DNA of 63,507 bases, counting the filler, from Hausera hauseri (Eukaryota), in the NCBI GenBank assembly GCA_046269625.1. It is 11 parts of 11 records of this genome, joined end to end, with 100 filler letters (N's around TTAATTAATTAA, not from the genome) between each part and the next. Parts side by side here need not be neighbours in the genome. Positions count along the whole stretch, not along the records: positions 37,175 to 42,815 come from JBJURY010215410.1; 10 more parts are not named here. One strand, written 5' to 3'. A program made the position numbers and the translations under genes. Under the pieces are notes generated by a model. It saw only the letters and a program-made list of their open reading frames with translations, was not told the DNA's origin and did not search any database. Below, in pieces: positions 10,592 through 63,507 of this stretch (its first letter is position 1; the number at the start of each line of letters is the position of its first letter).

Positions 10592-10678
10592 TGGCTATAT
10601 TTTTCATTATTTCCAAAATTACTTCAACGAATGGTAAGTTTTTTATTTGTGCTCCTCAAATAATTGGTTGATTTTTAG

Positions 10679-11290: not shown

Positions 11291-11299
11291 AGAGAAAAT

Positions 11300-14077: not shown

Positions 14078-14084
14078 GATACAA

Positions 14085-16772: not shown

Positions 16773-16835
16773 GGAACAAAGTCCTACCCTGGAAGAAAGT
16801 CCTACCCTGGAACAAAGTCCTACCCTGGAACAAAG
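16773..16835. repeat. 18-bp tandem repeat (GGAACAAAGTCCTACCCT) x3.5
   Basis: Directly visible; one mismatch in unit 2. Confidence 0.95.
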
Positions 16836-16872
16836 CGGTATTCCCTTTAATGAGAAATAAAAATAAAAATTT

Positions 16873-21112: not shown

Positions 21113-24100
21113 TTTTGATCCAAGAAAATAAAAATTCCGACGTTCGTGGAAAAACGCCGATGAATTGAAGAAAAGGAGAATTAGATGTCACGATGCAGAA
21201 ATATTACTGCGAAATTTAGAAAGGCTCAAGCAGTTTATCGAACAAGTAGATATATCCGGTAAAGAGCAACAATTCGCTGAGAGGTTATATAAAAGTTTAA
21301 AATTATATAATAAAGGGAAGCTCGATGAAGCAATCGACTTAGGACAACATGAAGAGGTACTACCTGAAACGTTGCTAAAATGGAAGCATGAATTAGAATC
21401 ATGGATTAAAAGTGGAGTGAAATTTTCGGAAGGATGGAGTAAAAACGAAGATGGTATTGATGTAAGAGTCGCTAAAGCTCAGTCTCTATTGTCTACCTTA
21501 GAAACAAATTCAAAACTGAAAAGAGTAGTCCGTAATCTAGAGCGTATGATGGTTGAAATTCATTGGTCAATGGTTAACCGGCTTAGAGAAAAACCGGTTA
21601 GCAATCAAAGTGATATTGATTTAGTGATATTGGGTATAGGCCAGTAGATATTCCTCACTTAATGGAGATGATAAAAATCGCCTTCGCCGTACCCAAACAA
21701 TATATGAACCTAGAGAATCGTATTAAAATGGAAAATGAAAAACGAGCACAAATTTGTAGTTTGAGAAATCGAATTATGTTTATGAATAACAAAGAAACCA
21801 AATAGGTAATAAAAGCTTGTATCAAAGAATTCGACGAATATAAGGATGAATTCAATTATGTCAGCCAGATAATAAGGTTTATAAAGGATCCAAATGACAA
21901 ATTAAAGGATGCATATAAGATGATAGACAACGCTATATTAGCAAAGTCAGTAATACCTAATCAACTACAGGAATGGTAGGCCGTAGAGTAAAAGACCGTA
22001 GGAAAGAATTTCCAGAAAGCGAGCCTTCTATCAAGAAACAATTAGAAGCAAGTGCACGTAACTTAAATATAATATAAGCGGAAATAGATATCCGTACTCA
22101 GTTCGAAGAATTAGGACAATTAAACTTTATAAAGAAGAGGCAAGAACTAACGATATTAGAAGAGATATACAAAATGATCGAAGAAACAAACTTTACAGAA
22201 AAGCGGAATATGATTTGTAATATTTATCCAAGATTAAGAAATATCCGACTAGTAGGAGTCCAGCATTTAACAGCTAAACCTACCGATGAAATCTCAATTC
22301 AGGATGTATAAACCTTAAATATTTGTCCAGAACATAGAACAGCTTTAAAAGACACGATGAGATTCATACATAAACCACACGAATGTATAGTCGGAACAGA
22401 TCAGAATTGCCATAACGAGTTGACAAAAATAAGAAACGACCACCATCTTAGTTCTGAAGAATCTAAATTCGTAAAAGAATTGCTCGATGCGATAGATTTC
22501 GACTCAAAAATCATTAATGAGATGTACTAGTTAGCCTTTCTCTTAGTAGAAATGGCAGAAATTAGTGATGAAAAGATGAGACAATTGATTACCAAATTAC
22601 AACAAGTAGAAGAAACATGCATTAGAACTAAACAAAGAGAACAAGGTTAAATGAATTAATAAAATAGATGGAAGTCTATCGGAACAAATATGTTTTTACC
22701 GAGTCAGAAATGAAAAATAAGCGTGAATTTGTACAAAGATGGAAAGAGATGTAATCGTCGAACTAACTGATTATCACCAAAAGGGATTTATCCATTCTGG
22801 TGAATTAGGCGAACTACTGAAAATGATTCAGTATTCATGTGGAAACGGAATAGGTATCTGAACCACACAGATAAAAGAAATACAACCAAGGTTAAAGGAA
22901 TTTCGAGAGAATGTACAAAGGAGGAATACAGCACTAGTAGACTATGGATTTCCAGACGTTGGAAATGAACCGGAATGGGATGCGTACTTAGGTGCAATAA
23001 CGGCCGAAAATCCTGTGACTCTAGTACAGCTAAATAAAATAGAAACATGTCCGCAGAACAGGCAATTCAATGTGGAGATGCTCCTGGATTCAGAGTTAAC
23101 TGAAAAAGATTTAATTGAACTAATTAACGTAAACATTACTGAAAGTAAGTTAAGACAACAACGATGAAAGTAATGGTATCATCCGAATGGATGAATGAAA
23201 AAGAATGTGAGTTAACTACGTATTCCTATGTAAGGGATGTAAGAGAATGGTTAATAAATAATGGTAGAACAAACGAATTAAACTATAGACTCTATTTTAA
23301 AGGTAGAATAGTAGACGATTAGAACAGCTAATATACGTCGGAATCATCCCCGACGAAACAAATGGAATAGTGGTGATAGTAGCCAATAAACGGACTCAAG
23401 AAAAAGCCACACGAAAGGCTAAGACAGCAAAATGCGTAGGGCAAATCATGGGAGTCCGAGACGCGGCAATGTATTTTGAATATTTACAAACGGATGAGGA
23501 CAAGGAACAATACGACAAGAATTTAGTACCACTAAGTGAAACGATAACCAATGTCCCAAGACAGAAACGCCCAGTCGGTAGACCTAAGAAGACACGAGAA
23601 GAAGCTGACTATAATGGAGAATTGATTAAAGAATTGAGATGGATGTCGATTCATACCTTCAGCACAGACGATAAAGAATTAAGCGAATTAATGAAGAATT
23701 TAATACGTATTGTAAATTATTCAAATCGTCGAGGTGACACATTAGATTACAAAGATAGGGCAATATTCAATGCAGCTAGGATGATGAGAAGTTCACGTTT
23801 TAAATGATCAAAAAGTAGTTTAACTGATGAATCAGTGATCGAAAAGATTATGGTAAAAAACACCACTGAAGAATTAATCAAAGTAATGTTGTACGTAGCT
23901 ATCAAAATAAACCCTAATTGAGACAATGAACTTACTAAAGCTACAAGCTTAGCATGAAGAGCGGCGATAAAGCTACCCTAAGAAGTAAATTGGTCGAGAC
24001 CATTCGATAAGGAAGAAGCCAGATGGTTCCTAAGTAGCAATAGACTCGAAGATATGCTACGTAATTTGACAACGACGGATAATAGTAGCTGGAAAAACGA

Positions 24101-25614: not shown

Positions 25615-26715
25615 CTTATCTTCGTCTTCTATTGTGTTGGTTTTACTCTCTTTTAGTTTTGCTCTAATCTTCTGTTGTAACTTTTCAATTGTTTCTTCAG
25701 GTTCTGTATCAGTAGTTTCGTGTTCGTTATCTGTATCTGATATATTGCCTACTATGTCAATATTCTTTTTCTTCTGGCTTGACTGTCCTTGATTGGGGCA
25801 GGTACGAGCCATGTGTCCATATCTTTGACACGCAAAACACAATGGTTGTCCATCTTGGTTAATTGGGAGTTTTCTCATTGTAGATTTTTGAGGTTGATTC
25901 TGCCAATTATTCTGAAGTGGCTTTTGCCATGTAACTTTCTTCTGAGTCTGTTGCTCCGGTTGATTTTGCTGCTTCTGAAATGGTTTTGGGAAACTTTTCT
26001 TTTGTTGAAAATTTTTCTGTTTCTTTTCATCATTCTTAAAGGACTTTTTTGCATTTTCAAGTCTCTCATAATTCACTTCAATTTTTCTAGCTTTACTAAC
26101 AGCTTCTTTGTAAGTATCCGGATCAGCGACAATAATGTAATTTTGGATTTCCTTATTAACTCCATAACAGAACTGAGCTAGGAGGGCATCTTCCCTTATA
26201 TCATCATCTGCGTAGGCTCTCTGAGCCAGTTTCTGAAGGGCACATGCATACTCTTGCACGGTTTCGCCTTTCCTCTGACGTCTTCTATTGAATTCTCCAA
26301 TTCGACCCTTTCCTGACGGGTCTACTAAGAGCCTTTCCTCTAGAGCGTCTTTAAGGCTAGCCCAATCAGCCTTATCTTCATCTTCTTTTATTTGAGTATA
26401 AGCACTAAGTGCTATGCCTTTAAGATGTAAAGGGAGCCGTTTGGTCCTATGCTCATCTGTCCACCCATAACTTTCAGAATACATTTCGTATTGCATAATA
26501 AACTCTGCGTAATCTTGGTCCGGCTTTGCCTCGTATTTTTCCATGGGTAACACCATCGTACTGTTTAGGTTACTGCCTAAACTAGTTCCAAGTCCTGAGG
26601 ACATTTCGGGATTCTGATTTTCTAACTGAAGATTTTCGTCTGATTCGGAACTACTCCGTGCCGAATCAGTGCGCGAATTTATGTTAGTAGCGTGTGCTTT
26701 ACGTTTCTTACGCAA
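25615..26715 (-). CDS. gag: Gag of a second Ty3/Gypsy family (capsid + CCHC zinc knuckle); first ATG at 26604; open to contig end
   Basis: YGWTD..LPLHLKGIA, RRQRKGETVQEY...LQKLA, LLAQFCYGV, CFACQRYGHMARTC. Confidence 0.9.
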
Positions 26716-26737
26716 AGAATACGACGCCAGTGTGCCT

Positions 26738-26754
26738 CCTCACTCGGGGCACCA
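26738..26754 (-). other. Primer-binding site TGGTGCCCCGAGTGAGG (elongator tRNA-Met-like)
   Basis: Follows the LTR end ...TATCA after 1 nt; complementary to a tRNA 3' end CCUCAC(U)CGGGGCACCA. Confidence 0.8.
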
Positions 26755-33686: not shown

Positions 33687-33899
33687 ACTGCTTCAACGAC
33701 ACAGGCTAAACCACCAAAATTATAATGTCCAACCTTCTTCATACGTTTGGGCGGAACGCCATTAAAGTGGTTCCATGTGTTTGAAACATGGGCTACTCAA
33801 TGCAGCATCACTGGCCAACTAAACAAAAGATGGAATACACTATAATACCATCCTGAATGGTTGTCCACGCCCAATTCTGGCAGCAAACCTACGGAAATG

Positions 33900-34128
33900 G
33901 GCGTTTGACACCATTCACAACATCCATCACCCTGGATCAAAAGCCACAGCTCGCTTATTGAGCAGCAGAGTTTGTTGGCCTCGCATGCTAAGCGATATAA
34001 AGCGGTGGACAAAAGAATGTTTACTTTGCCAACAATACAAAGTCAACAAGACTATACAACCCCCAATCCTACACTATCCTTCTGGCTCACGGTTTGAAAC
34101 CATACACATGGACATAGTAGGACCACGT
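33900..34128 (+). pseudogene. Gypsy (CsRn1-like) integrase fragment
   Basis: PGSKAT..L.SRVCWPRM..DIKRWTKECLLCQQYKV...RFETIHMDIVGP. Confidence 0.85.
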
Positions 34129-34965
34129 AAATTAAAAATTACATACGTATACATGTTAAATGAATGACTAATTGAATTACTTTGATACTTTTTCTACCAA
34201 TTTTTCACTCATTGAAATATCGCATTGTGATATCGTATTAATTGTGTGAACAATAATGTTTTTTAATTCATTTTGTGACATTTGCCGTAACTTTTCGGCA
34301 GAATCATTTTCATGCGAGAAAATTTATGAATGGAAAGGAGTGTCACTGCATTGATGAGTGGCAGAGCATCCTCCTCTGACATTTTCATGTGGGCGGAGGC
34401 GTCATAGGCGTTTGGGAAAAGTATTTTAAAGAGGGACCAGAATATATACAAGGAGTTGCATCTAAGAGTGGCATGATAGCCCCAGTAATCCATTTCGTCG
34501 GTGGAGAATTAAGTAGCTACATCGGTTTTTCTAAGAGCTTGTTTTGTAAAGTTGTTAAGGTCCTTAGTCATGTTTTGCAGTGGTGTGTCGCATAATGATT
34601 TTACAATGTCTGAAAAGCTTTTACGAGGTAGGCCAAAAGATTCGGAAGATATTTGTGTAGTGTCTGCTAAATAGGAGGGTGAAGAGGAGCTGCTTGCAGA
34701 AGATTTTTGGCTACTTGAAGACGAGATGGTCAGGATGTCATCATCTGTGTTATCACCTATTCTATTTGTCTGCTTGGAGTAGATGGTGACAGGGTTTTCT
34801 AATTTAGAGGTATGTGCGACTAGTGTTTGTGGTGGGGCATTGATTGTGGCAATATTAAATTCTATTTTGTTGCAGTATATTTGGGTGTTATTACCGTAAT
34901 TTTATCTATATGTGTAAATTCATGTTTTGTAAATGTTAGTTTCGGGTAGGGTATAGGTCCATGAC

Positions 34966-37174: not shown

Positions 37175-37920
37175 AATCGATAACCCAATTTGCTTTTGCC
37201 TTAAAGAAACTGGCAAACAGTTATGTGAGCACCTTAAGGATTTCAAACATAGCCAAGGCTAAAAATGAAGCAGAACGTGAAGCCGAAGAAAAGTCAAGTC
37301 CTCCCGATTTGGACGTCATGATGATGACGCAGTTACTAAATGGTATTTGGTCTAAAGACATAGTAAAGCAATTGATTCTAGAACGTCCCGAGAATTTTGA
37401 TAGGACGTTGCAATTAGCTCAGGACTTGGAGATGTCATAGGATAGATATGCCAGAAACAATGATAGATATGATCGAAATAATGGCCAAGCTGATCGAAGT
37501 CATAGGAATCGCAATAATAGAAATGATAGACGATATAATAAGAATTATGGAGATCTGAACAGGAATGATAATTGTGACCGTAGGAACGATCGATACAATA
37601 ATTAGAATTTTGGTCGAAACAGCCCATTTAGCAAATTAAACTACAATGCGGACAGATACGCAGACTGTCCAAAAAACTTTAATAATTAAAGTCGACAGAA
37701 GGACAATCGGAATTATGATAATCTCCAATATGGACAACCAAGACAGGCTCCACCGCAGCAAACTTACAATAGAAATCCGAGTAGATCTAAATCTCCATTA
37801 AATAAAAATGGCCGTCAAAGAGTTGGAAGAAATGGCAATTTATTCTGTTTTACATGTGGACAAGAATGACATATAGCGAGGTCCTGTCCGAATCCGCGAA
37901 GCGTCTCGTTTGTGGAACCC
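37175..37920 (+). pseudogene. gag: Gag C-terminal part (capsid C-domain, R/N/D-rich tract, CCHC knuckle)
   Basis: ITQFAFALKKLA, QLLNG..L...PENF...LQLAQDLE, CFTCGQE*HIARSC at ~37845. Confidence 0.8.
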
Positions 37921-40900
37921 AGCAAAATTAACGTAATTAGAAACGAAAATTTAGAAGCAATCTATGGCGTTTGTTGAGACACAGGCATGGTTATCGAGAT
38001 ACAATATTTACGACGTTTTTTGAAAAACCAGCCTGATACTGATGACCCCAAAGTTCTAGTGGCTAGAAACGAATATGAGCACAAATTACGATTAATGGAA
38101 GTCTATCACGGTCTACACAAGCCACAAACAGAATATAAACGTTTTATCGCCCCGCCAAGGCTTACTGATATGGCACGGAAGAAGAACCTTCCGAGGACAA
38201 GCAAAGAGTCAGGCGAAATGGAGAAACCTTAGACTCCGGATAAAATAACTATAGAGGTAGAGCCAGAGCATACTATAAAAAAGATAATTGAGGAAATAGA
38301 CGTCGAAGAGAAGGAAGAATTCCTAGAGCCGCTCATTCTCAAAATTACTAAAAACAAAGGCCGTAGTCTCTCGTTGAAGCGAAAACGCAAGGATAGATCA
38401 AGATCTCCCATGCGCAAGTCGAGCACAAAGAAAGAGGTCGAAATCGCACCAAAAAGCGACATCGAGTGCGCCTCAAACTGTCCAGAAATTAGTTTAGTTA
38501 CGCCCGGAGAAATAGAAGAACTGATAAAAATTGCAGATAAAATAAACGATGTATGTCCGATAACTACTAGTGAGGAGGAAACAGAACAAGAAGAGAAACT
38601 TGATCCTAAAAAGTGGAAAATCAGGCGCTCGTGGAAAAATTTCGAACAGTTAAAAAGCATGAGGGAAAATTGTCACAACTTAGAGGTATTACAACAGAAT
38701 TTAGAGAAACTCAAAGCAATAAGTGAACAAGTAGATATTTCGGGCAAAGAACAGCAGATTGTAGAGATACTGTATAAAAAGATGAAACTATACAGTGAAG
38801 GAAAGCTAAGTGAAGCCATAGATTTGGATCAACCCGATGAAGTTGCAAAAGAGACTCTGGCACAATGGAAACGCACATTAGAGCGCTGGATGAAAGTTGG
38901 GACGAAAAATCTAGAGACATGGGATAAGACCACCCAAGACATTGAAACTAGAATCAGCCAGGCTCAGTCGCTATTAGCAACATTAGAAGCCAACCCGAAA
39001 TTAAAACGAGCGGTACATAATCTAAAGCGTGTAATGGATAAAATTAGATTCATCATAGCTGAGCAACTAAAAAAGAAACCGGTTAAAGAAAGGACTGAAA
39101 CTGATCTGGAGATGTTGGGTATAGATTCCTTAGATATTCCGCCTTTAATGGAGATGATAAAAATCGTTTCTAATGCAACAAGGCAATATACCAGTCTGGG
39201 AAGTCGAAAAACTGTCGCAGATAAATAGTCTAAGGAATAGAATTATGTACCCAAATAACGATGAAACACGGAGAATAACTGTAGCTTGTGTCCTGGAATT
39301 TAATGAGCATGAAGAAGAGTTTGACTATGCCTGTCGGATCATTGATTTCATTAAAGGCCCAGATGATGAACTAGAAGACGCCAACAAGATGTCAAACAAA
39401 GCGATACTGGCAAAGCCAGATATCAGGAATCAAATGAATGAGTGGTCCAAAGTAATAACAAGTTTGAGCGAATTAATAAGTAGCCGGATGAACGAATTTC
39501 CGCAAAGCGAATGTAGAGTAAAGAGGCAGTTGAAGGAAGACGCCCAAAATTTAGATACGATGAAAGCAGAAATTGACATCCGAACGCAATTCAAATCCTT
39601 ACGCCTGTTGGATTTTATGGACAGGAAACAAGAAATAATGATGCTTGAGGACATATATAAAGTGATCGAAGAAACAAACTTTACACAAAAGCGGAATGAG
39701 ATTCATGACCTTTATCCAAAATTAAGAAAAGTCCGCCTAGAAGGAATTCAAAATTTGGCCACCAAGCCCATAGGAGAAATATCCGTTCGTGACCTTAAGG
39801 CATTAGACGTTTGTACCAATCACCAGTCAACCCTCGAAGAGATAGTGGCGTTTTTACATCAACCACAGGAAGGAATGCCTGGAGCCGACCGAAGGTATCA
39901 TATCGAATTAACTAAAATAAGGAATGACCAACATCTGAATTTTGAAGAAGTTAAGTTCATAAAAAGGCTACTTGATGAAATAGACCCCGACTCCAGAGTT
40001 ATTAATGAGATGTATGACCTAGTACAACTAATGGTGGAAATGGCAGAAATCAGCGATGAGAAATTAAGACAGCTGCTGCCACAGATACGACAAATTGAAG
40101 AAACTAATATCAAAACCAAACAGAGAGCGATGAAATTTGACGAACTAGCCAAAGAACTCAAACCGTATAAAGTTAAGTATGCTCTTACCGAAGCAGAGAA
40201 GGTTGACAAGTCGCAATTTGTGCATAAATGGCAACTGGACGTAGCTTCCGAGTTAACTAATTACCAGGAAAAGGGATTTATATCAGCCGAAGAATTATGA
40301 CAGCTGCTAACCGTACTACGTCAAACTTCTGGAAATTGATGCTGTTTCCGAACCACCAAAATGGTTATAATGCAACAGAAGCTACGAGAACTTAGAGCAA
40401 CCGTAGAGATTGCGGGTGCAAATAGGTCGACTGACACACTACCGAGAAGTTATTCATTACCGGATAATGAAAATGAGCCAGATTGGGAGGCATATCTAGA
40501 TGCCATGATGGCCGAAAATCCGAAAACCCCCGTGCGATTGAACGAAACAGAGGTACCGTCGCCGGACCAGAAATTCTGTGTAGAAATGCTCTTAGATCCG
40601 GTACAGACTGAAAATGAACTATTTAGGTTAATCAATGTGAACCTCACTGAAAAGCAATTAATACGGTTGGTTCCCACTTTAACCAAATTGGCCAGCGAAG
40701 GTACAGTTTACAGTGCCGCGCCAAAACTTTTAATCAAAGAATATGCTGAATTTCTAAGGACAAGGCCCGAAGAGGGAATTAAAGTAAAAATAACGGCAGA
40801 TTGGATGGATGAAAAGGAAGAAGAGTTCACTACGCATTCATCCGTGAAGGATGTATTACTATGGATAACGAATAACGGTTACACCCACGAGCTGAACTAT

Positions 40901-41718
40901 AGGCTATATTTTAGAGGAAGAATGCTTGACGAGTCGGAACTATTGATAGAAGTCGGAATCATTCCTGACGAGGTGAACCGGTTAGTGGTAACCATCGCTA
41001 ACAACGAGACAAAAGAAGAGGCTATAAGGAAGGCAAAGGCCGAACAGCCAATAGGACGAATAATAGGAGTCCGAGACGCGGTAGTGTATTTTGAGTACCT
41101 ACAGACAGATGAAGATCATGAGCAATACGATAAAAATTTGGTACCGATTAATGTCGGTATACTTGTTGTAACGAAACAAAAGCGACCTATTGGTAGGCCA
41201 CGGAAGATACGGGAAGAAATTGACTATAATGGAGACTTGATCAGAGAAATGGGGCAGATATCCATATTAAACTTTAGTGCAGATAATGAGGAACTGAATG
41301 AACTAATGAAAGATTGGATACGAATGGTAAATTACTCCAGTTTGAACGGTGATGTGTTAGATAAAAAAAGGCCATATTAAATGCCGCCAAGGCCATGAAA
41401 GGCATCCGGTGTAAATTATCTAAAAGTACCTTAAGCGACAAAGCAACGATCGAGAAAATTATGGTGGAAAATACCGTGGAGGAATTGAGAAAAGTGATGC
41501 TATATTTAGCCATCAAAACCAATCCGAATCGCAAAAACGAATTTAACAAGGCTGCCAGTTTAGCAAGGAAGGCTGCCAGGAAAATACCTCGAGAGGTGAA
41601 CTGGTCTAAGCTATTCGAAAAAGAGAAAGAACCTAAAGGAGAATTCTTCTTAGACATCAACAGGCTCGGTGACCTGCTACAAAACGTAGCCGGAAACCGC
41701 AGAGGAAACGAATCGATT
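37921..41718 (+). pseudogene. Region X: long charged helical protein segment with ubiquitin-like domain (40778-40996) and AT-hook-like motif (41180-41206)
   Basis: ORFs 37987, 38374, 39173, 40361, 41395; conserved in copies 2 and 5. Confidence 0.75.
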
Positions 41719-42815
41719 TGGCTAATCAACCTCTTGACCATTATGATGCTGATAAGACAGATAGGCGCCGTCACTGTACATGATTGTCACAGATTTAGAC
41801 TTGGCCAAAAATACTCCCTAATGGACTTGGAAATGTGCGAAGATGCGAGACCACACAAACTGGAAACAAAGGAAAAAAGTTACGTGTATTATACCAACAG
41901 CGCGAACTAATTACATTAGATAGAGTAGAGTGTATGTTGAGACGATCCCGAAGCATCTTCCACTGTGGACTAATACATAGACACTCGTCAATAATTAAGC
42001 CAACCATCCCCCTAATTCTAATGAATTTAGAGCGTCAACATTGCAAACAAACCAGAGAAACGGGAAGAATAAAATGGGATGGAATGGAATTAGAGATGCA
42101 ACAAGGGAAGATAATTAGAGTGTATAAGGTGGTAGCAGGAAGGCTGGACATGCACACTGGACATTGCCAAGGCACAGAATATGATACGGGAAAAGGATCA
42201 GAGTCAAACGTCGTGGTAGTGGATTTTTACGAAACCGAAATGCGCATACAAAAAGTGATGTTTCATAGCGTTACCAAGTTCTATACCGAGAACCACAAGT
42301 GTCGCGTTCAGGATGGCACATGTCCATTTCGAAGTTCAGTAGTAATTTGGGAATCACCAGCTAAAATTGATTGCAACTTCATTAGGATTAAAAAACTTAA
42401 ATTCAACGAGACGACCGGAAAACAGTACATAACTAGTACAGAAACCAACTCTAAAACACAAGAAGATGTAGCCGAACAGTCCACACCCACTATACGGATT
42501 TCTGATACTCATGGATTAAAATTTGTAAAGAAGACCATGCTCACCCGATGCCACGTAGTAATGTATGCTACCAAATATGAAGCGTTTTTTGTAGCCGAGA
42601 CTGAAATAAATGCCCGAACGTTCAAACTCAAGACTCAAGACATCCGAATTGAGGATTATGTGAAGAACAGAGACGATTACTTTTATTATAAAGGAAAAGC
42701 CGGAATAGCCGAGTTGTACCACAAGATGATAACAAACAATTGTAAATTGGACTTGGAAATCATGAGAACTAAATTAGCTCTAATCTACGCCAATCCGGAG
42801 CTGGCGTCACCAATA
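41719..42815 (+). pseudogene. env: Chuvirus-like glycoprotein (N-terminal half)
   Basis: WLINLLTIMMLIRQIGA/VTVHDC, RSIFHCGLIHRHSSI, GHCQG, NVVVVD, VVIW..DCNF, LYHKMITNNC. Confidence 0.82.
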
Positions 42816-42915: not shown

Positions 42916-43754
42916 TTTTCATCTTTATACGCAACTCTGAATCTTTTTAAAAACACAAAATCAATTTCAAGTCTTGATATCTAATTATATTTCTTTTTTA
43001 TGTACATTCACAACGCCTTTCTTTTCTTTACAATTAAAACAAACTCATACAAGTCATATATAAAAAACTCTATACAATTGACATGAAGAAAATTCATATT
43101 ATCACATAATTTACAATCGCAATTTAATATTATCAATTTGATAACTACAACGATGAATATATACAATTTATTACATAAGTTCGCCAAATCCGCCATCCAC
43201 ATCGCAATATATCATCGTTCACCGTCTCAACTCCCGTCATTTTTTGTTGATTATTTTGGTGCATACAAGCCAAATTTTGTTTAACATGTTCAAGAATAAA
43301 TTCTGAATCTGGGATACCTGACAATTTATACATCCTGGTACTGTTTTTTGACAGTAGAATAGTGAATATCTTCTCAGCATTCCAAATACCATTTCTACAA
43401 CCCATGATTTTTTCTACGATGATAATACCGATTTCTAGAGATTTAAAAAAATAAATTTCTCAAGTCTCCCAAAGATCTCTTCGAGTTTTCATTGAAGGTT
43501 ATGATTCCGACAAAGAAGCCCGGAGTTTATAATTGTATTAGTCAATCTGACCTCCATTTGTTCATTGAATTACTTGGCAACGGGACTCTTAGATTTATTG
43601 ATGTTGTCTTGTATCTATATTAACTTGCCTTCATAATAATATTAATTTAAGTCGATCTCTGTCCGAAAGATATTTGGCCAACTACCATATCAAACACATT
43701 TAACATAACCATCGATACACGGCATTTAGATGAGTTGGTTTTGTTTGCGATTGG

Positions 43755-44112
43755 TAAGACTATTAATCAGAATCCCGATAACCACAATTGGATGTTTGTC
43801 AAGGCCGAACTTACCATTGCTAAATCCGATTATTTTAAAGCCATGAGATGTTACTTGGAAGCGGGTGCGGCAGCAACGGAATTTTTTACAAATCCCGTGA
43901 CAAAGGAAATCTATACTGATTGGGTACTGCAACACAATCCGATGCTGCCGTGAGATGGGGTATCATCACTAGGCCATATTTTTCCGTCAATACATACCGG
44001 ATAATATTATCGCTGCTCAAATGGCCCCGGAGGTGACAATTCCAATGATTCGTCTGATTTCTATGTCCACTTGATGTGGGATATTAATCTCATTGAGTTT
44101 CTTGTCACCATT
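43755..44112 (+). pseudogene. INTS8: Integrator complex subunit 8 C-terminal fragment (frameshifted, with stop)
   Basis: AMRCYLEAGAAATEFFTNPVTKEIYTDWVL...RCC..MG...MWDINLIEFL resembles INTS8 YLQAGAVCSDFF..VP.DVYTDQV...KCC...IWDVTILEYL (from memory). Confidence 0.7.
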
Positions 44113-44124
44113 GTATACGAATAT

Positions 44125-44277
44125 TATTTCACACTGGTCCTATTTAGTAAACTCCATGGTGAAATTTCGACTCTCGATGATCTGATTGAACCTGATCCGG
44201 CCTTCAGGTCACTCCAGCAGATGATTTATTATAATGAAAGCGATTTCTCCGACGTATTTCGCTTGTACTATGAGGTT
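44125..44277 (+). pseudogene. HECT E3 ligase domain fragment
   Basis: YFTLVLFSKLHGEISTLDDLIEPDPAFRSLQQMIYYNESDFSDVFRLYYEV fits HECT F..vlyKL.G...tL.DL....P....SL..ll.Y.....d.f.l.f.v. Confidence 0.6.
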
Positions 44278-45189
44278 TATTTGGAAAACGCAGCAAGAGT
44301 CTCAAGTAACAGAGCTGATAACATGGCAAAACAACCCATCTACTATATGGACACTCTTTGCAACCTATTCAGCGAGAGTATATTATTAAAATGTTGTATG
44401 TTTCTTCTTTACTGGAGTCGGGGTTTGATTTAATCAGAAATAAAGACTCGAAGTACTCGAATTTATCTGGTAATAACGCATGCATTCTGTCAAGTAGAAC
44501 AAGAGAAGTAAAGAGAAAAGTGAGTCAAAACCTCCGTTGGGTTACATACTATTTTATCGTGAAGCGCGGAGGAATATTACACGCGGTAATTCAGAGGAAA
44601 GAATATGTCAGATTTGACAAAATCCGGTAGACGTCTTACAATCACAGATATGTAGACACAGATTGGTAGAATTTTTGTTGCTGATTTGCGCTCACCAGTA
44701 CAATAATTTTCTACATTTATACAAATTACTAATAGTTAACATCAATTTCAATTTTAAAACGCCTTTCAGTTCAGAAATTTTGGATATTTTATCACAATTA
44801 ATATTTGCTACTATTCTCCCGGCTGCATACTCAAACCTTTTCAAGGTCAGAAAAGAAACTCTCCCAGGCCCACACGCACCAACGTTCTCCTTGCATTGCT
44901 TCACAGCAATTTTCCTTTTTTGTTTTCAGCAATAATCAATATATAAAAACAATAAGAGCTCCACTCAACGACACATCACAGCCCTTATACAAATCTGTCA
45001 TTTTTATTCAACACTTTTGACTGCTAATTCACATATCAAGGTCTTACTATGCACTCTTCCGACTCCCTCTCACTGTTCACACGTTACGAACATCCGATCA
45101 TCCATCTCTCTCCACTTTCGCTTTCGGGGTGGATCTGACCCAAATCCATCTTTCTCAGATGATACATCTACAAATACATGTAATATCTA

Positions 45190-46760: not shown

Positions 46761-48632
46761 TCAATTACTGCAACTGTTTTTTCCGATGATATGTGGAAGG
46801 TTCAAAACAGATTTATTAATAATTTCCATATTTATATCATGGTACAGACGTTTGCTGGGCCCATAACTAGCAAACATTATTCCACTTTTAATACCATTTA
46901 ATATTAATTTTGTTCTTCTTTTCGAGTCCCATAATCCCCATACCGGCTTCTTTTGTGTGAAACAAATGATCACTTGGGGAGAAAATCCCTCTCCACATTT
47001 ACCCTCTTCTGTATCCAACTTTATCTCACTAGACCCATCTATTTTGAATATCCCCATAATTTCCCCATATCCCTTATCCAAAATATATAAATATAAAAAT
47101 ACATCTACATTAAATTTGCCATCATACTTGACCATTGTTAACGCAGTGTCCCTCTGCGGGGGTATGAAACCACCTTTAAATTCATTAGTCGGTTCAAACA
47201 TTCTGATTTTAGCACACATACGATCTCCAGCGGCATTCATAAGAACGAAAAACCAACGAACAACCAGAATATTATTCATATAACATCTTGATACCTGAAT
47301 AAGTCTCTCTTGATGTACAACTTTAGATTGAATTTGATTTGTAATATTGGCTCTGTTGTCGTTTGAACCCGAAGTAACATATTCTTTCGTCAGCAACTCC
47401 GCATTTCGGTCGTTCTCACCCGTACACTCGTTTTTTTGAAATTCTCTGAATATTTTTAATGATAATTCGGAATATAATGTTTCAACGACGTAATAAAGGT
47501 AGTACCTGAATAAACCTTCTACGATTTTCTCGTTCGTATCAGCTTGTGTAATCCCTTCTATTCGGAAACGACCCATTATCAGTGATACCGGACAAAACAA
47601 TCGAAATAAATTCATACAGTGTATTTTTCCCGTGCTTCTCGACCCTTTGATCCCAGTATAATTAAGATCGGATAATATCGGTTCTAGATGAACAAGGATT
47701 GTATCCGAGACCGTCTCTTCGGCTTCTTCATGATCTATGGGTTTTGAATAGTATGCTTGAAACTCTTTTGGGATATATCTCCACCTTCTTATGCATATCG
47801 TATCAGTGTCCAAATAAATAGGGAACGAAATTAGTTTGAAATTAATGTATATAAAATGTCCTTCCATGATTGTATTATATATAGAACCTTTTCCTTTATC
47901 ATAGTATTCGTGCACACACATTAAAGCAGGTCCAACATAAAGGTGAAAGAAAAACGGATAGCGGTATATTTGGTTAAGGCAAAGAAACTCTTGCATGGTT
48001 TTCCAATGTAAATCAGGTTGTAGGTGTCGTTCAGCCAATTCAAAGTAATCACCTTGTAGATAAAGTATTTGGCCAATACATAGAAGTTTTTGCTTCTGTT
48101 TCCCATATGACTCAATTTGTATGTGTCTTTCAACCAACTCAAAACGATCTCTTTGTAGGTGTAGGAGTTTATAAACATGAAGAGTTAAATAAATTCTGTG
48201 AAATTCATATTTATCCATGATAATTTCATCGTGAACATAATTCTTTACTATCTCAAGAAATATCTTCTTAATTTCGTTGGATACATCAATTTCTATAGTC
48301 ATTAATCTCTGTTTAATACTTTCCATAAATGACCTATCATCCGTCTCCGATATGTTTTTTCTTCGTAACACATGTATTCTCGCTTCTGGAGATACCCATT
48401 CATCCAAGACAATAGGATTTAACGTTATGGTCTTTATCTGACCTCTATGAAATGAATGGATAACATTTTCAAAACATCTGAGTCTTCGTGACTCACTGAT
48501 TTTGAACATATTTTGCATTAAGTCGTTTAGGAATTCATTATTCCTTCTTTGAAAATTAAAATTAAATTTCAAATATGAATTTTTAATTTGCATCAATGCC
48601 AATTCTATAGCTATTGCTATAGTATATTCCAT
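46761..48632 (-). CDS. Intact 623-aa hypothetical protein, intronless, with internal 33-aa tandem repeat
   Basis: ATG-to-stop ORF of 1872 bp in very AT-rich DNA; no recognised domain. Confidence 0.7.
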   Translation of the reverse strand: MEYTIAIAIELALMQIKNSYLKFNFNFQRRNNEFLNDLMQNMFKISESRRLRCFENVIHSFHRGQIKTITLNPIVLDEWVSPEARIHVLRRKNISETDDRSFMESIKQRLMTIEIDVSNEIKKIFLEIVKNYVHDEIIMDKYEFHRIYLTLHVYKLLHLQRDRFELVERHIQIESYGKQKQKLLCIGQILYLQGDYFELAERHLQPDLHWKTMQEFLCLNQIYRYPFFFHLYVGPALMCVHEYYDKGKGSIYNTIMEGHFIYINFKLISFPIYLDTDTICIRRWRYIPKEFQAYYSKPIDHEEAEETVSDTILVHLEPILSDLNYTGIKGSRSTGKIHCMNLFRLFCPVSLIMGRFRIEGITQADTNEKIVEGLFRYYLYYVVETLYSELSLKIFREFQKNECTGENDRNAELLTKEYVTSGSNDNRANITNQIQSKVVHQERLIQVSRCYMNNILVVRWFFVLMNAAGDRMCAKIRMFEPTNEFKGGFIPPQRDTALTMVKYDGKFNVDVFLYLYILDKGYGEIMGIFKIDGSSEIKLDTEEGKCGEGFSPQVIICFTQKKPVWGLWDSKRRTKLILNGIKSGIMFASYGPSKRLYHDINMEIINKSVLNLPHIIGKNSCSN

Positions 48633-49134
48633 ATCTACAGATATCGCTTATTTAATTGTATAAATGTACATTGATTTGTACATAATAAATGTAATATTAA
48701 TCATAAATGGGAATTCCCAACTTTTACGTGTATAAATACGTACATCCCGACATAATTTTCAAACTTCCTTGTTGAGTAAAAACTCATGTTAGTATCAAAC
48801 AAACAAAACATTGATTTAATAATGTCCATTTTTCTATTGTAGATCCGAATAAAGACAAAGCTGTCATATTTAAATTTTCCAATTGCGTTAATTTCTTTAT
48901 TGACAAACGTACCTTCATCTTTCTGGTCAACACTATATTTTGCACGTATCTCTCGGTGGTAATTTCGCCTTCAATTTTTAATTTGGATTCCTCCTCTTAT
49001 TTCTTCTCAGAGTTTATTTCCAATTACGTTTCCACTTTTTACCAAATGGACTCTTGTTGGAATCGATGGCAAGTCATTGTTAAGTTCCTCTTCACTTGCC
49101 GTACTCATCGTGAAATCTAATAGACCACCAGGAT

Positions 49135-49234: not shown

Positions 49235-50990
49235 GCAAGTTGAAGTCCGGGTATTGTAAAACTGGTTCGCGTGTTAGAATCTTCTTCATTTCGTCGAAAG
49301 CTTTCTGTTTGACATCCGATTATTTCCATTTAATTCCTTTCTTAAGTTGGCGATACAAAGGTGCATTTACTATCGAGTTGTCTGGCACATAAGAGGCATA
49401 ATATCCACATAAACCTAGTCACTGTCTTAACTTCCGATTTTATGGCTCCATGTCATCTTATATGTTGTCCAATAATGATTTTTCTGGCACCGATCCTCCT
49501 TCTCCAACTATATGGCCAAGGTTGGATACTGCGTTTTGAGCCCCTTTGCATTTCTTTGGGTATAATTTTAATCTTAATTGTTTCATTTGCATCATTATAT
49601 GCTCGACATCCTTTAAATGTTCTTCTGTTTTTGACGCTATTATTACATAATCTAAGTACACAAAAGCGTTGTCCTGTCCCATTAACATTTTATTCATCAT
49701 TCCTGTAAAAATGGTCGGTCCGGTAGTAATGCCGAACGGCATAACGTTAAATTCATAAACAACATCACGTGTTTTGAATGTCGTTTTATAACGGCCTTCG
49801 TCCTCGATTTCTACTTGCCAATATCCAGATTGTAAATCCAGAGTGGTAAACCATTTTTCACCTGAAAGCTTGTCTAGAGCTTCGTTTGCTGATGGCAGTG
49901 GGAAAGAATCCTTCAACATAAGACTGTTCAGTGTTCTGTAATCAATACAACATTGATGTTTTGTAGTACTTTTCTTTTTAACCATAAAGACTGGCAAGTA
50001 CCAAGATTTGTAGCTGGGCTTAATTATGTCTGCATTTAGAATTCGTTCAACTTCTTTTGTTGTCTCAGGTCTTTTGTTATCTTGTTGTCTCAGAGAATGA
50101 GATGGAGGTTACCATTTCGGCATCTTCTGGTCCTCAAGATCTATTTTCGGGCTTTTTCTTAAGCGGAATAATCAGTCTTAAAGTCTTTGCTCTACAAATA
50201 TCCTCGTCGTCTTTAGCAATAATAAATTTATAGTAGCATAATAATTCGTAGAATAGACAATAAGACTCGTGTGAAAACGTAGTTTCAACATGAGGTGGAA
50301 TTTCAGCATATTTGAAAGGTTTTTTTCAACAGTTATGGACGACACTCTATAAGTATTTTCCAAGGTAGTATAAGCATGTAGCTTGACTGGGTCGGTGCAT
50401 TATTCGCTATTCTGATCGGCACACGGTCTGACTTTACTCTTGCCAATATATTATTGATTACTATATTCGGAATTAACGTTTTCTTTGGTTCGAAATATAC
50501 TGGTTGGTAATAATCTTGTTGAATTTGTGCATAAATTATTATCTCTGTTCTCGATGGAATATTTTTGTCTATTGGAATCCACACTTCTCCAAATTCCCTA
50601 TCTTTAGCAGTTTTTACGCTTTTTATTGGTTTAATCTCTATTAGTTTTCCTGCTTGCATGTCGATTGCTACATTTGGTAGTATTTTAGCAGGTCGCAACC
50701 TAAAATTACATCATCAGTTAATTGTTCCATAATTGCAAATTCATAACAGTAAAACAATCCAAGTATATGAACCTCTGGCTTCCATTTGACTATCGGTTTT
50801 GACATTTGGCCAAAAGCGCCTGTGCTTTTCGGGATCTATTGTTGATGGTGGATACAACTGTCTTCTTAACGTTTGAGGAATTGAATCATTCTTGATGTAA
50901 GACGTCTGAGAACCTGTGTCTATTAAGCACAAACTTCCCAATCTTCTGTAGTGACTTTGGCAAAGGGTCTCCCTTCTATTTCTGTTCCGA
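49235..50990 (-). pseudogene. pol: Protease + reverse transcriptase
   Basis: GRPFAK, LIDTGSQ, CIDYRTLN, FTTLDLQSGYWQV, MPFGI, YLDY (mutated YLDD). Confidence 0.92.
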
Positions 50991-53759: not shown

Positions 53760-55683
53760 TTCTTATCCTTGTGTTTTAATTGAAATATGGGTCTTGCTCG
53801 ACGTTTATGATTATAATAGCCGACCTGGCGTTAAACGTCATTTTTCCATCAAATCTCTTCATACGCTTTAAGCATTTTACCAAATGGTGTGATAATTGCA
53901 GTTAGTATTTTGCATGAAAATCCAGTTAACGTAAATATGTCGTATCCATTAATTACTGCTTGGATGACGGCCTTAACCATCTATATCAGAAAATATATTG
54001 CTAAGAATCCAGATGTAGCTTGTCAAAAAATTAAAAATCTTCCCCAAATTTTGTAAAGTATTTCCGTTGTTACTCTCTAATAATGGTCTACGCCAAGTAA
54101 TGATTTCTATTTAGCCTGATATCATGTATCATCTACCATAGCTCGATTTAATTCATGAGTTTGCTGTCGCGGAAAAGCCAGGAATTGTTTGAAGGATTCG
54201 ATTTCCTTCGGTCTGTATATGCCTTTCGAGGAGGTGTCTTGGAATTTATCGTCTGTAATCCCTTTTGCAAGATTAGTCCCTGTTAATTTATTTGGAGAGG
54301 CAGTAATACCTCCATTTGGTAACCTAACCCCCAATCCGTTTTGCTACGTCTAAACATTGGTTCACCCAAACTTGCTTTGCAATCCTTCAATATTGTAGGT
54401 TGTGTTGCGTTGTCTAGCAATACTCTAGTGAGAGGCATGGCTAACCGTGGGGTATTATGGTAGATTACAGGGAGTTCTTGTATGCACCGTTTTTCCTCAA
54501 CGTTAATTGGTACATCTCTTTTCTCGCATTTGTATGTCAGTAAGACTTCACCTGTAACCCGATCAAAAATTCCTTCTCTCATGGGAATAATCGGTGAGGC
54601 TAACTCCGGGTTTGCATAAATGAGGGCTAATTTTGTTTTCGTGATTTCCGTATTTAATTTGCAGTCATTAGTTATCATTTTGTGGTATAGTTCGGCTATT
54701 CCAACTTGTCCTTTGTAATAAAAATAATCATCTCGGTTTTTCAGATAATCTTCGATTCTAATATCTTGCATTTCTAAGTTGTACGTTTTTAACTTTATCT
54801 CCGATTCTGCGACGAAGAACGCTTTGTAGTTAGCGGTAAACATTATCACTTCATACCATGAGATCATTTCCTTCTTTATGAATTTCAATCCTTGTTGATC
54901 CGAGATTAATATCGTAGGTGTATGATGCTCTGATACATCTTCACGTGCTCTTGAACTGATGTCGGATTAGTTTACGTATCGTTTTCCGGTGGTTTCATTA
55001 AATTTCAATTCCTTAATTTTAATAAAATTACTGGCTTTTCCGGTGGGCGGTTCCCATATGACGACAGAACTTCTGAAGGCACAGGTTCCGTCTTACATGT
55101 GACACTTCTGATTCTTATGATATAATTTAGTGACGCTATGAAACATTATCTTTTGAACTCGCATTTCCGATTCGTAAAAATCTACTACAACTATGTTTGC
55201 TTGCAATACTTTTCCGATATCGTATTTCGTTCCACTACAATGCCCGCTATGCATATCCAACCTTCCGGCTACTATCTTTTATGCTCTGATTATTTTTCCG
55301 GGCTGCATTTCTAATTCCATGCTATCCCATTTCAGTCTTCCGGTTTCTCGGGCTTGCTTGCAGTGTTATCTTTCCAAATTCATAGGAATCGGAGGGGTTG
55401 TCGGTTTAATTATTGAGGAGTGTACGTGTATTAGTCCACAGTGAAAGATGCTACAAGATCGTCTCAACATACATTCCGTGCCATCCAAAGATATCAATTC
55501 TTGTTGTTGGTATAGGAAATAACTCTTCTCATTTGTTTCCAATTTGTGTGGTCTGGCATCCTTACATGCTTCTAAGTCCATTAGTGAATATTTTTGTCTA
55601 AGCTTAAATCTATCACAATCATAGACGGTAACAGCACCCATTTGTTTTAATAGCATCATTAGGGTGAATAAACTGATTAACCA
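53760..55683 (-). pseudogene. env: Chuvirus-like glycoprotein
   Basis: WLISLFTLMMLLKQMGA/VTVYDC, SIFHCG, LYHKMITNDC, GEVLLTYKC, CIQELPV, PLTRVL. Confidence 0.82.
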
Positions 55684-58600
55684 ATTTGATTCATTTTTCC
55701 TGTTGTTATTATCCCTTGTCGTCAGGTTCCGTATGATATCTTCGAGTCTATTGTTACCACTTCTCTTGTCTTCTTCTTTGTCAAACAGTTTTGGCCAATT
55801 TACTTCACACGGGAGTTTCCTAGCTGCTTTTCGTGCCAAATTTGTGGCTTGGTTTAATTCATTTTCTCGATTGGGATTTGTCTTAATTGCCAAGTACAAT
55901 AACACTTTTCTTGGCTCTTCTATCGTATTTTCCACCATAATTTTCTCAACTACTGCATCGTCAGTTAGACTACTTTTTAACAGTTTGAAATGCGAACTTT
56001 TCATTGTCCTGGCTGCATTAAATATTTCCTTTTCTTTGTCATTTAATGTATCTCCGCGGAGACTCGAATAATTTACTATACGTATTAAATTTTTCATTAA
56101 CTCGCTTAATTTTTTATTATCTGTACTAAAAGTAGGAATCGACATCTGCCTTAACTCTCTAATCAGTTCTCCATTATAGTCAATTTCTTCTCGAGGCTTC
56201 CTAGATCTGCCGACTGGGCGTTTTGGTCTTGTGGCATTGGTTGGCATTCTACTCAGCGGTACTAGTTTCTTGTCATATTGTTCCTTATCTTTATCCGTTT
56301 GTAAATACTCGAAATACATTGCCGCATCTCGTACTCTCATGATTTCTCCTACACATTGTTCCGTTTTAGCATTCCGTGTGGCTTCTTCTTTCGTCTGTTC
56401 ATTGGCTATTATTACTATTATACGATTCGTTTCATCGGGGATAATTCCGACATCAATTAACTGTTTTAAATCGTCGAGTATTCTTCCTCTAAAGTAGAAT
56501 CTGTAATTTATCTCGTTTGTTCCACCGTTCTTTAGTAACCATTCTCTTACGTCCTTAACGTAGGAATAAGTAGTCAGCTCACATACTTTTCCTTCCATCC
56601 AGTCAGATGATATCATTATTTTCAGCACTACTTCAGGTTTAGTTCTCAAAGTATTTGCATACTTCTTTATCAGAAGTTTTGGCATTGTGTTGTAAATTGT
56701 ATTCTCGCTATATAATTTAGTTAAGGTCGAAATACGTTGTCTGGGCTTGCTTTTAGTCATATTCACATTAATTGATTCCATCAAGTCCCTTTCAGTTAAC
56801 TCTGAGTCTAGGAGCATTTCCACATTGAATTTCCTGTCCTGCGGATACATTTGTATTTCATCTAGGTGTACTGGTAGTCCGTAATCTACAAGAGCTATGT
56901 TCGTTCTTTGCACATTTTCTCGAACTTCTTTCAGTCTTGGTTGTATTTCTTTAATCTGCGTAGTTCGGAAACCTATTCCGTTTCCACATGCATATTGAAT
57001 CATTTTCAGTAATTCGCCTAACTCGTTAGAATTGATGAATCCCTTTTGATAATAATCGGTTAATTCGATAATTACATCTCTTTGCCATCTTTGTACAAAT
57101 TCTCTCTTATTTTTTATTTCTGATTCCGTAAAAGCGTATTTGTTCTGGTAACCTTCAAACTCTTTTACTAGTTTATGCAGTCACGTTGCTCTTTGTTTTG
57201 TTTTGATGCATGTTTCTTCAACTTGTTGTATTTTGGGCATTAATTGTCTCATCCTTTCATCATTGATTTCCGCCATTTCTACCAGTAAATAAGCTGGCTC
57301 ATACATCCCATTTATAGTTTTTGAGTCGGGATCCATTGCATCCGACAATTACTTCACGAACTTGTGTTCCTGAAAGCTAAAATGTAGGTCGTCTCTTATT
57401 TTTGTCAACTCGGTATGAAAATTCTGAACTGATCCAGTCATCCATTCCTGTGGTTTATGCCAGAATTTTATTGCGTCTTTTAACGTATCTCGATGTCCGG
57501 GACAGATGTCTAAGATTTCAATGTTTTGGGCGGAGATCTTGTCGATCGGTTTTTCCGTTAAGTATTAGATTCCTTCTAGTCGAGCAACCTTCAACTTTGA
57601 AGTTACATTGTAAATCATGTTCCGTTTTTCCGTGAAGTTCGTCTGTTTGATTAATTTATAAATCTCCTTTAATATCTACGTTTCTTGTTCTCTTTTCATA
57701 AATTTTAACCGTCTTAATGCTTCGAAATGGGTGCGGATATCTATTTCTATTCGCATTGTGCCTAGATCATGTGCACTTTCTTCTAGCTGCTTCTTTACCA
57801 TTGGGTCGTTTTGCGGAAATTCTTTTTTGCGGTCTTCTACTGATTTGCTTAGTCGGTTTACTAACTCGGACCATTCCGGCAATTGATTTGCGATTACTGG
57901 TTTCACCATTATAGCCTTATCTAACATCTTATACGCATCGTTTAACTCATCGTCCGGTCCTCTTAGGAAATTCATAATCCAACCGACATAACTAAACTTG
58001 TCCTTATATTCGTCCAGTTCTGCGATACAAGCTTTTATTATATATTTCGTTTCTTCGTTATTCATGAACATGATCCGATTTCTTAAACTACTGATTTGTG
58101 ACCTTCTTTTATTCTCCATTTTGATGCGGCTCTTTAAGTCCGCACATTGTCTGTTTTCGAGGAAGGCAATTTTTATCATCTCCATTAAGTGAGGAATATC
58201 TATCGGGTCTACACCCAATATCTCTAAATCGATACTACTTCGATCGCTAACCGGTTTTTCTCTAAGGCGATTTATCATTATATAACGTATTTCGTCCATC
58301 TTACGTTCTACGTTACGGGCTACTCTCTTCAACTTAGGATTAGCTTCTTAGATAGATAGCAGTGTTTGCGCTTCAGCAACTTTTACACTAATATTATTTT
58401 CGTCTTTATTCCATCCTTCCGAAAATTCTACTCCACTTTTAATCCACGACTCTAATTCGTGGTTCCATTTTATCAACGTATCTCGTGGCGCCTCTTCCGG
58501 TTGTCTTAATTTAATTGCTTCGTCAAGTATCCCATCACTCCACAATTTTTAAATTTTGTATAATTTCTCCGCAAACTGTTGTTCTTTACCAGATATGTCT

Positions 58601-59436
58601 GTTTGTTTACTGATCTGTTTAAACCTCTCTAAATTGTGTCGGAGTATTTCTGGATCGTGACATCTAATTCTTGTCTTCTTTAATTCATCAGCATTCTTCC
58701 ATAAACGTCGAACTTTCCATTTCCTTGCATCAGGATCATTATTATCGTCCGTTTCTTCCTCACTAGCGGGAAGCGGACAAATTTCATTTATTTCGTCATT
58801 AACATTTATCATCTCGGGTGTCTCCAACACTTCTGGAATCCCTATAGGCGTAGTAGAAATATCTGAGGATGAGTTTGCGGTGTAAATATCTTCTCTTCTT
58901 TCTATGTTCTTTTTAATGGGCAAGCGTGAACGAGTTTTAGATTTTCTCTTAGGCGATGGGCTTCTACCTGTATTCTTCGTTATCTTGAGAACTAAGGGCC
59001 CAAGAAATTCGCTTTTGACTTCATCCGTTTTTTCATCTGGATTATGCGTCACGACTTCTATTTCTGCGTTTAAGTCTACATTTTTAGATGTCGATGGATT
59101 CTCCGATTGTGCTATTCCTTGTGGAATAGACTTCTTACGCGCCATATTAGTATTATTTGGTGCTAATGCCCATTCTTCTTCAGTTTGTGACTCTCTTAAT
59201 CCATGATAAACTTCCATTTGTCGTAATTTCTTTTTATATTCTTTTCTAGTGTTCATTACTTGAGGATTAGTAGTTTCACTTAGATTTCTTAAAGATCTGC
59301 GTAAATCTTGCATTTCGATAATCAGGCTTATATCTCCTCGTTTGCCATATATGGCTTCTAATTTATTCTTGATCATACTTGTTTTGTTTGGTTCAGTAAA
59401 TGTGACACTACTAGGATTTGGGCATGACCTAGCAAT
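55684..59436 (-). pseudogene. Gag end + region X with ubiquitin-like domain (56407-56625)
   Basis: Homologous to 37860-41718. Confidence 0.75.
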
Positions 59437-59536: not shown

Positions 59537-59713
59537 CCCATCATCGCTGGTGACGAAATTGGAACGTATGCGTCAACTCGTCGCATACAAGGATATTATG
59601 CACCAAAATCCATTGACATTTCTATGTAAAAATTATTGTGTGGACTGTCTTAGACGTCAGTGAACATATATTGTTACAAACTTTGTTGTGTTAATAAATG
59701 TTTTGTTGAAATA

Positions 59714-60230
59714 ATGTCCGTCTTATTTATTGGCTTTGAGGGATTCGTGGATAATAATAATGAATACATCATAAAGGAGCTATGTATAATGCCAATGGAT
59801 AATATATTTCATCCACTACATTATGTATTTGCTTAAGTGAATTTTAGTATAGTACATGTGATTTAAGCTATGTTTTGACCTACAACACATCACTGTACAA
59901 ACAAGGCCCAAGCAACAAATGCTTATCTGACACAACATCATTATAAACTGACTTGAGAAGAATACAATACCCAGTTTTGAGGAGATTTCCTTATGTGAGA
60001 CATTGGGAATGTGTGATATAGATGAATCCATATTCTATATCAAAGATCATGCTCATGAGCGAAAGAAGATATTTAATAGCGCATTTCCAGAATTGCGAAA
60101 ATGTGCATATGAATGTAGCATATTGGTGTCTATACCAAAGAATATTACATGTATTTATCGTAAACATGATCAATATTGTGCTTATAAAAAGTGTTTAGCG
60201 TTATGCCAAAGTGATATTGTTACTAAATAA
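59714..60230 (+). pseudogene. Small DEDD-like exonuclease-type ORF with C-terminal Cys/His cluster, of the kind found in arthropod Polintons
   Basis: MSVLFIGFEGFVDNNNEYIIKELCIMP...HYVF ... FYIK...K...C..H..YCA; disrupted. Confidence 0.5.
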
Positions 60231-60388
60231 ATGTGTTATGAAATTAGTTGGTCTTAACCTATACAGTAGTTACTTAATTTTACTTGGCCTTATCCTATAT
60301 CCCACAATATTTGATTAAGATATTATATTGCAACACGACATTTCTATACAACATTTATTAAACAAAGAATAACAGTGAATAACAATAT

Positions 60389-63300: not shown

Positions 63301-63507
63301 ACATACACAAGCAATTTCTTGATGGTTATCGGAGTCCATTTGCTCTTCTTATCATGGCTGTCCTTAGCCTCGTGGATCAGCTTCTCTTGCGCATCTTGCA
63401 TCCATTCTGCTATATTGGGTGTTTTCCAATATGGGTCTATTTCTGGTTTTGAAGGCCCTTTTGGACTCTTCGCCATCAACATTGACGTATGTGGCCTCAA
63501 GTTTCAT
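60389..63507 (-). pseudogene. Polinton/Maverick-type protein-primed PolB, copy C (endonuclease VII-like domain through C-terminus)
   Basis: RGSSYIQLP, DHCHFTGAYRGAACNNCN, RKGVFPY, ANNLYGWAM, KLYNNSVFGKTMENIRKR, YMDTDSF, LGKF.NE, KRAKGV, TLPHGY. Confidence 0.93.

Follow-up and report, generated by a model that had tools for sequence, protein, structure and literature searches.

Evidence for a ubiquitin-like domain on the Gag side of a Gag-Env-Pol retroelement from Hausera hauseri

The window analysed here, a stretch of 63,507 nucleotides of Hausera hauseri DNA, carries copies of a Ty3/gypsy retroelement whose polyprotein almost certainly contains a genuine ubiquitin-like domain (Ubl) between Gag and Env. 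The domain is very probably integral and non-conjugatable. As the best explanation, which we consider probable on balance, an integral Ubl without a conjugation tail on the Gag side of a Gag-Env-Pol protein would provide a surface on which host ubiquitin receptors can dock.

Copies of the element in the window

Since the window consists of 11 separate segments with N-linkers between them, the copies described below are not neighbours. Parts of a single retroelement family, sharing 64–80% DNA identity, were recognized in five segments, three of which include the Ubl, namely copies 2, 4 and 5:

40778–40996, plus strand: Ubl of copy 4; 73 amino acids, unbroken, no C-terminal Gly-Gly
56407–56625, minus strand: Ubl of copy 5; unbroken, within a 604-codon open stretch reaching Env
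23164–23381, plus strand: Ubl of copy 2; frameshift near 23320, with ~37 codons absent just upstream

The Ubl of copy 4, whose 73 residues agree with those quoted at first pass, sits in a stop-to-stop frame at 40340–41380. A first-pass annotation had described the domain as conserved in copies 2 and 5, and a profile of the three copies, searched against all six frames of the window, found precisely these and copy 4: exactly three places scored 37–165 bits, while the next best reached 4.5 bits, and no additional Ubl was found in the same polyprotein. Identical residues amounted to 42 of 73 (58%) between copies 4 and 5 and to 53 of 73 between copies 2 and 5. With dN/dS values of 0.17 for copy 4 against copy 5 (73 codons) and of 0.23 and 0.33 for the pairs involving copy 2 (52 codons), the Ubl is under purifying selection (0.17–0.33). 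Its conservation equals that of its flanks and is no higher, as identity between copies 4 and 5 is 58% in the Ubl, 51% upstream, 62% downstream and 72% in Env. No stops are common to different copies. The element copies in the window are decayed and dead, and any function of the Ubl therefore belonged to active ancestors.

Identity of the ubiquitin-like domain

The assignment of 40778–40996 as a Ubl, first made from the sequence alone, was borne out by profile searches. Profile A9, which combines the three window copies with two distant relatives (P0005 and P0006, described below), was searched against the PDB and matched the Ubl of ubiquilin-2 with an E-value of 5.7e-6 over positions 4–66 of 84. 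At E ≤ 0.001 this profile gave 12 PDB matches, 11 of them named as ubiquilin/hPLIC-2 or ISG15 and one being an unnamed RIKEN clone; further down followed BAG6 (E 0.003), RAD23 (E 0.011) and the best SUMO1 match (E 0.12). Without the relatives, the three-copy profile yielded 10 of 15 matches named as Ubl (best E 0.032), copy 5 alone yielded 16 of 23, and all eight matches of copy 4 alone were Ubl entries (E 0.29–1.3). Among the ESM Atlas matches listed, each of the five named rows was a ubiquitin or Rad60-SLD cluster (0.88–0.90).

The Pfam check that had been proposed along with the assignment gave a divided answer, as the single copies stayed under the cut-offs and significance was obtained against the PDB with the profile including both relatives. 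Copy 5 scored 15.3 bits and copy 4 12.3 bits for ubiquitin against a gathering score of 25.4, and neither copy attained the gathering score of PF00240 or PF11976. The single-copy Pfam E-values of 0.004 and 0.017 are not significant on their own, because chance matches down to E 0.0037 were obtained in a control search of Pfam with 20 tiles of 87 residues taken elsewhere from this polyprotein, none of which (0 of 20) matched ubiquitin, UBX or Rad60-SLD. Adding the P0005 and P0006 stretches improved the best Pfam ubiquitin E-value to 4.3e-5; in NCBIfam, no match for the Ubl was found.

Structure prediction, the second check proposed, did not confirm a beta-grasp fold, with pLDDT values of 38 for the single sequence and 50 for a four-row alignment that predates the finding of P0005 and P0006; it is the profiles that uphold the domain identity. 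Fold searches with the low-confidence pLDDT-50 model ranked no Ubl high. The order strand-strand-helix-strand(s)-strand with an alternating hydrophobic core fits a Ubl, a secondary structure that was taken from the same model and whose support is only moderate because of this pLDDT of 50. In an ungapped alignment to ubiquitin residues 23–71, the Phe-x-Gly turn is preserved, as are the positions of the core (residue numbers 23–71, 44, 47, 48 and 70 follow the ubiquitin numbering). At position 44, the window copies carry Tyr and the relatives Val, so that a hydrophobic residue occurs in all five sequences; Gly47 is retained in all five as well. The window copies have Arg in place of Lys48 and a hydrophobic residue at position 70, where the alignment places Lys in the relatives. 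That the resemblance arose by chance, the segment having another alpha/beta fold, appears very improbable: sub-threshold Pfam scores, control tiles with similar E-values to unrelated families and the low rank of Ubls in fold searches speak in its favour, but the profile E-value of 5.7e-6 over positions 4–66 of 84 and the Pfam E-value of 4.3e-5 obtained with the P0005/P0006 stretches argue against it, and the fold searches relied on low-confidence models.

Two specific classes were considered and rejected. The UBX domain binds p97 via a Phe-Pro-Arg loop; here, PF00789 reached 17.9 bits against a cut-off of 21, in copy 4 only, and no Pro follows the Phe in any copy. For a conjugatable modifier (type I UBL) the Gly-Gly is missing: in agreement with the first-pass annotation, none occurs within 25 residues downstream of the domain in any of the three copies, nor directly after the domain in either relative. 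The same observation bears on the idea that host deubiquitinases use the Ubl as a processing signal, as in pestivirus polyproteins, or that the Ubl is a conjugatable modifier. Ubiquitin insertions in BVDV/CSFV are described to act in this manner (PMC8310069), but with no Gly-Gly after the Ubl and a sequence distant from ubiquitin, this reading is barely credible here and has already been largely refuted.

Layout of the element

The element is a Ty3/gypsy retroelement comprising Gag, ~1,250 extra residues, an internal signal peptide, a gB-type Env and Pol, with the following parts located in the window:

37846–37887, plus strand: Gag CCHC zinc knuckle of copy 4; pattern match, contains a stop
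38233–40600, plus strand: long charged region from the knuckle to the Ubl; no Pfam family above cut-off
41713–41775, plus strand: putative internal signal peptide of Env, predicted from a hydrophobic stretch
41776–42815, plus strand: N-terminal part of a gB/Monjiviricetes-type envelope glycoprotein; PF24664 with 85.4 bits, cut-off 27; the segment ends here
54286–59436, minus strand: single frame of copy 5 with 1,717 codons; starts just past the knuckle, spans the Ubl and enters Env
2647–6096, plus strand: Pol (protease, RT, RNase H, integrase) following Env in a sister copy; broken
49461–50108, minus strand: RT following Env in another sister copy; RVT_1 with 94.9 bits

In copy 5, a single frame connects the knuckle with the Ubl and Env, which substantiates the earlier placement of the domain inside a retrotransposon polyprotein. 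This frame holds 10 stops, each of which is a sense codon in other copies. The Ubl begins 937 codons past the knuckle of copy 5 and ends ~240 residues before the predicted signal peptide, a stretch that is the sole interval above 1.6 on the Kyte-Doolittle scale in the 1,717-codon frame. The gene order gag, env, pol was pieced together from overlapping copies, and open stretches that overlap among three copies let us infer that reading continues from Env into Pol. The order PR-RT-RH-IN within Pol is that of Ty3/gypsy, with the protease identified by motif and a weak RVP match (E 0.066), and between PR and RT lies a conserved insert that gave no dUTPase match. Based on distances and knuckle positions, the polyprotein is estimated at 3,500–3,650 residues. 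No direct repeat of at least 25 bases that could mark LTRs was detected in the segment 1–10491, and the segments end inside the element; likewise, the stretches scanned gave no Pfam match to MATH, BIR or ankyrin, the element ends lying outside the window.

Between Ubl and Env, no match to a BCL2-like domain was obtained in Pfam, the PDB or the Atlas, and a BCL2-like reading of this region, prompted by Burro and by the end of P0005, gained no backing from the profile, which gave −1.0 bits, with 175 of 403 scored shuffles as high. Residues 830–985 of P0005 form a helical C-terminal region ending in Gly-Gly-Trp, which we take to resemble the BCL2 BH2 motif; the P0005 C-terminus aligns collinearly with the stretch preceding Env in the window copies at 19%, which is not above shuffles. 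A Ddi1-like pairing of Ubl and protease was rejected because Env separates the two.

The Env tail at 1829–2230 (plus strand) contains two hydrophobic stretches rather than one, and the topology of the Pol that follows hinges on whether both are membrane-spanning. An ORF with a RING finger (9473–9922, plus strand; PF00097 with 21.3 bits, cut-off 21) lies 3.4 kb past the integrase of a sister copy and is encoded by the same strand; between the two are a membrane-segment ORF (6830–7447) and an ORF of 275 codons (7837–8661). These three ORFs are possibly accessory genes of the element.

Distant Gag relatives and a shared unit

P0005 and P0006 are distant Gag proteins with CCHC knuckles and 21–29% identity, and the knuckle region of copy 4 matches that of P0005 with an E-value of 5e-4. 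Two further features accompany the Ubl:

40619–40765, plus strand: segment predicted to be helical, immediately preceding the Ubl; common to P0005 and P0006
41180–41206, plus strand: basic Gly-Arg-Pro motif, presumably AT-hook-like, ~60 residues after the Ubl

The helical segment scored 10.2 and 15.7 bits against P0005 and P0006, respectively, compared with 6.2 and 2.8 bits for the best shuffles, and segment and Ubl each match both relatives separately; its helicity is predicted only in the low-confidence model with pLDDT 38. The motif after the Ubl reads Gly-Arg-Pro in copies 2 and 4, Gly-Arg-Ser in copy 5 and Arg-Gly-Arg-Pro in both relatives, and Pfam gave no AT-hook match for this region in window copies or relatives.

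A Gag of another gypsy family, with Ty3 capsid and CCHC knuckle, is located at 25615–26739 (minus strand) on a segment that stops soon after the knuckle; it resembles the Gag parts of P0005 (E 1e-31) and P0006 (3e-21). The stretch 37177–37437, considered as a Gag capsid, did not match this Gag (E 0.16). Word-based searches for the domain returned no homologs, and an RT search among long proteins left two of 606 candidates, neither with a listed Ubl or Env family. Locus scans found none in metagenomes (copy 5 as query) and none in viral contigs; the metagenome match L001 was discarded as a chance 25-residue match within a bacterial gene.

Comparison with known systems

A Ubl between Gag and Env is already known from giant flatworm retrotransposons, of which the element in the window is a further example. 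In planarian Burro/GYPSM1, Arkhipova and Yushenova describe a Ubi2/SUMO-like domain (PF11976) between MATH and BCL2, as well as an Env that lies in frame between Gag and Pol and matches mononegavirus fusion proteins (PMC6431247). As far as that description goes, both elements combine Gag with a CCHC knuckle, a long extra region and a ubiquitin-fold domain in one polyprotein, in which Env lies in frame between Gag and Pol and is followed by PR-RT-RH-IN. They differ in polyprotein size (an estimated 3,500–3,650 versus 4,873–5,140 residues), in the number of knuckles (one seen here versus two or three) and in MATH, BIR, ankyrin and BCL2, which are present in Burro/GYPSM1, whereas none was detected here; moreover, the Ubl of the window ranks with ubiquilin/ISG15 and not with SUMO, Burro/GYPSM1 being compared by description only. 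Because size and the MATH/BIR/ankyrin features fail in the visible parts, the element was not filed as Burro; we class it as a gypsy element of the GAG-ENV-POL, gB type whose cargo is Burro-like. Its differing features are the Ubl nearer to ubiquilin than to SUMO, the shorter polyprotein, and the helical segment and AT-hook-like motif that flank the Ubl and are common to both relatives. For Burro1, expression is described as shown (PMC8532177) and a function of the RING/BIR cargo is cited (PMC13465017).

GAG-ENV-POL errantiviruses with an HSV/gB-type ENV, described from nematodes, bryozoans and flatworms by Chary and Hayashi (PMC13524379), share the gene order and the Env class PF24664 with the present element, but are intact, while the window copies are broken. 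The term "ubiquitin" has 0 occurrences in the main text of that article, whose supplements could hold domain notes. With the type II UBLs of ubiquilin, RAD23 and BAG6, which are its best profile matches, the domain has in common that it is integral and devoid of Gly-Gly; unlike them, it lies mid-chain in a retroelement polyprotein with no UBA partner detected, and the binding patch is kept only partly in the relatives.

Proposed role of the domain

Host-receptor docking as the job of the Ubl comes close to an even chance in our judgement while falling short of it. The internal signal peptide ~240 residues downstream would leave the Ubl in the cytosol, tied to Gag at the membrane, where the retained hydrophobic face (Tyr/Val at position 44) could bind host ubiquitin/UBL receptors of the ESCRT or proteasome type. 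Such binding would need no ligation step, and docking might aid particle release or control precursor turnover. We favour docking because ubiquilin-type Ubls are the best matches, because an engineered Gag-ubiquitin fusion is reported to be able to drive ESCRT-dependent budding (PMC2958808), and because the classical late-domain motifs PTAP, PPxY and YPxL are absent from the knuckle-to-signal region of copy 5 and from both whole relatives. The "proteasome or adaptor binding" suggested at first pass is likewise a putative role; the top profile matches are ubiquilin Ubl domains.

Alternatively, and by analogy with coronavirus nsp3 Ubl1, the Ubl might act as an internal scaffold whose partners belong to the element itself (nucleocapsid, RNA or accessory RING protein), which is possible, if rather unlikely. 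Viral polyprotein Ubls are described to work in this way, nsp3 Ubl1 binding the viral N protein (PMC9938351, PMC8769549), and nsp3 Ubl1 shares with our domain that it is an integral, non-conjugated Ubl of a viral polyprotein; it belongs to an unrelated virus class, no similarity match was seen, and the comparison is one of analogy only. The observation that Ubl and preceding helical segment travel as one unit in relatives of 21–29% identity would agree with a scaffold, as would the RING ORF 3.4 kb past the integrase in the sister copy, but this ORF is only a candidate gene of the element, no LTR having been found, and the ubiquilin-type top matches and the hydrophobic residue at position 44 in five of five sequences count against a scaffold.

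We regard as quite doubtful a further proposal, in which a unit of helix, Ubl and AT-hook would be freed by the element's protease and, in the nucleus, bind AT-rich DNA and mimic SUMO or ubiquitin against silencing. The basic Gly-Arg-Pro after the Ubl in copies 2 and 4, its Arg-Gly-Arg-Pro counterpart in both relatives and the Ubi2/SUMO-like label of the Burro domain are consistent with it; however, Pfam gave no AT-hook match, Ser replaces Pro in copy 5, the match to SUMO1 (E 0.12) lies far below that to ubiquilin (E 5.7e-6), and no cleavage site was identified.

Other observations in the window

A broken fragment at 43651–44430 (plus strand) resembles Integrator complex subunit 8 over its first 154 codons (PDB 7cun_H, E 1e-15) and runs on into unrelated sequence; it may be a host-gene mosaic, and its presence suits a eukaryotic host that is probably an animal. 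Decayed repeats in inverted arrangement at 10592–16872 and 59537–63507, with matches to type B DNA polymerase and endonuclease VII, are by resemblance taken to be Polinton-like. An ORF of 628 codons, unbroken and matched by neither Pfam nor NCBIfam, lies at 46761–48647 (minus strand), and short fragments at 18398–18694 (minus strand) and 33823–34164 (plus strand) are putatively similar to the C-terminus of a mariner transposase and to a further integrase.

Significance

In the literature accessible to us, a Ubl between Gag and Env is covered by one sentence only (PMC6431247), and no functional test was found there. The present element extends the occurrence of a ubiquitin-fold domain between Gag and Env beyond the full-size Burro layout, since the Ubl also occurs in a Gag-Env-Pol family of smaller size and in a pair of remote Gag proteins, each time behind the same helical segment. 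As a natural domain of 73 residues, it offers a small and tractable handle on the contact between element and host ubiquitin system. More speculatively, and in our view doubtful, helix, Ubl and AT-hook could form a Gag module conserved across a broader range of animal gypsy elements, in which the Ubl would serve as a genetically encoded "built-in ubiquitin" that recruits ESCRT and replaces a late domain; if true, this module would be the natural counterpart of engineered Gag-ubiquitin fusions.
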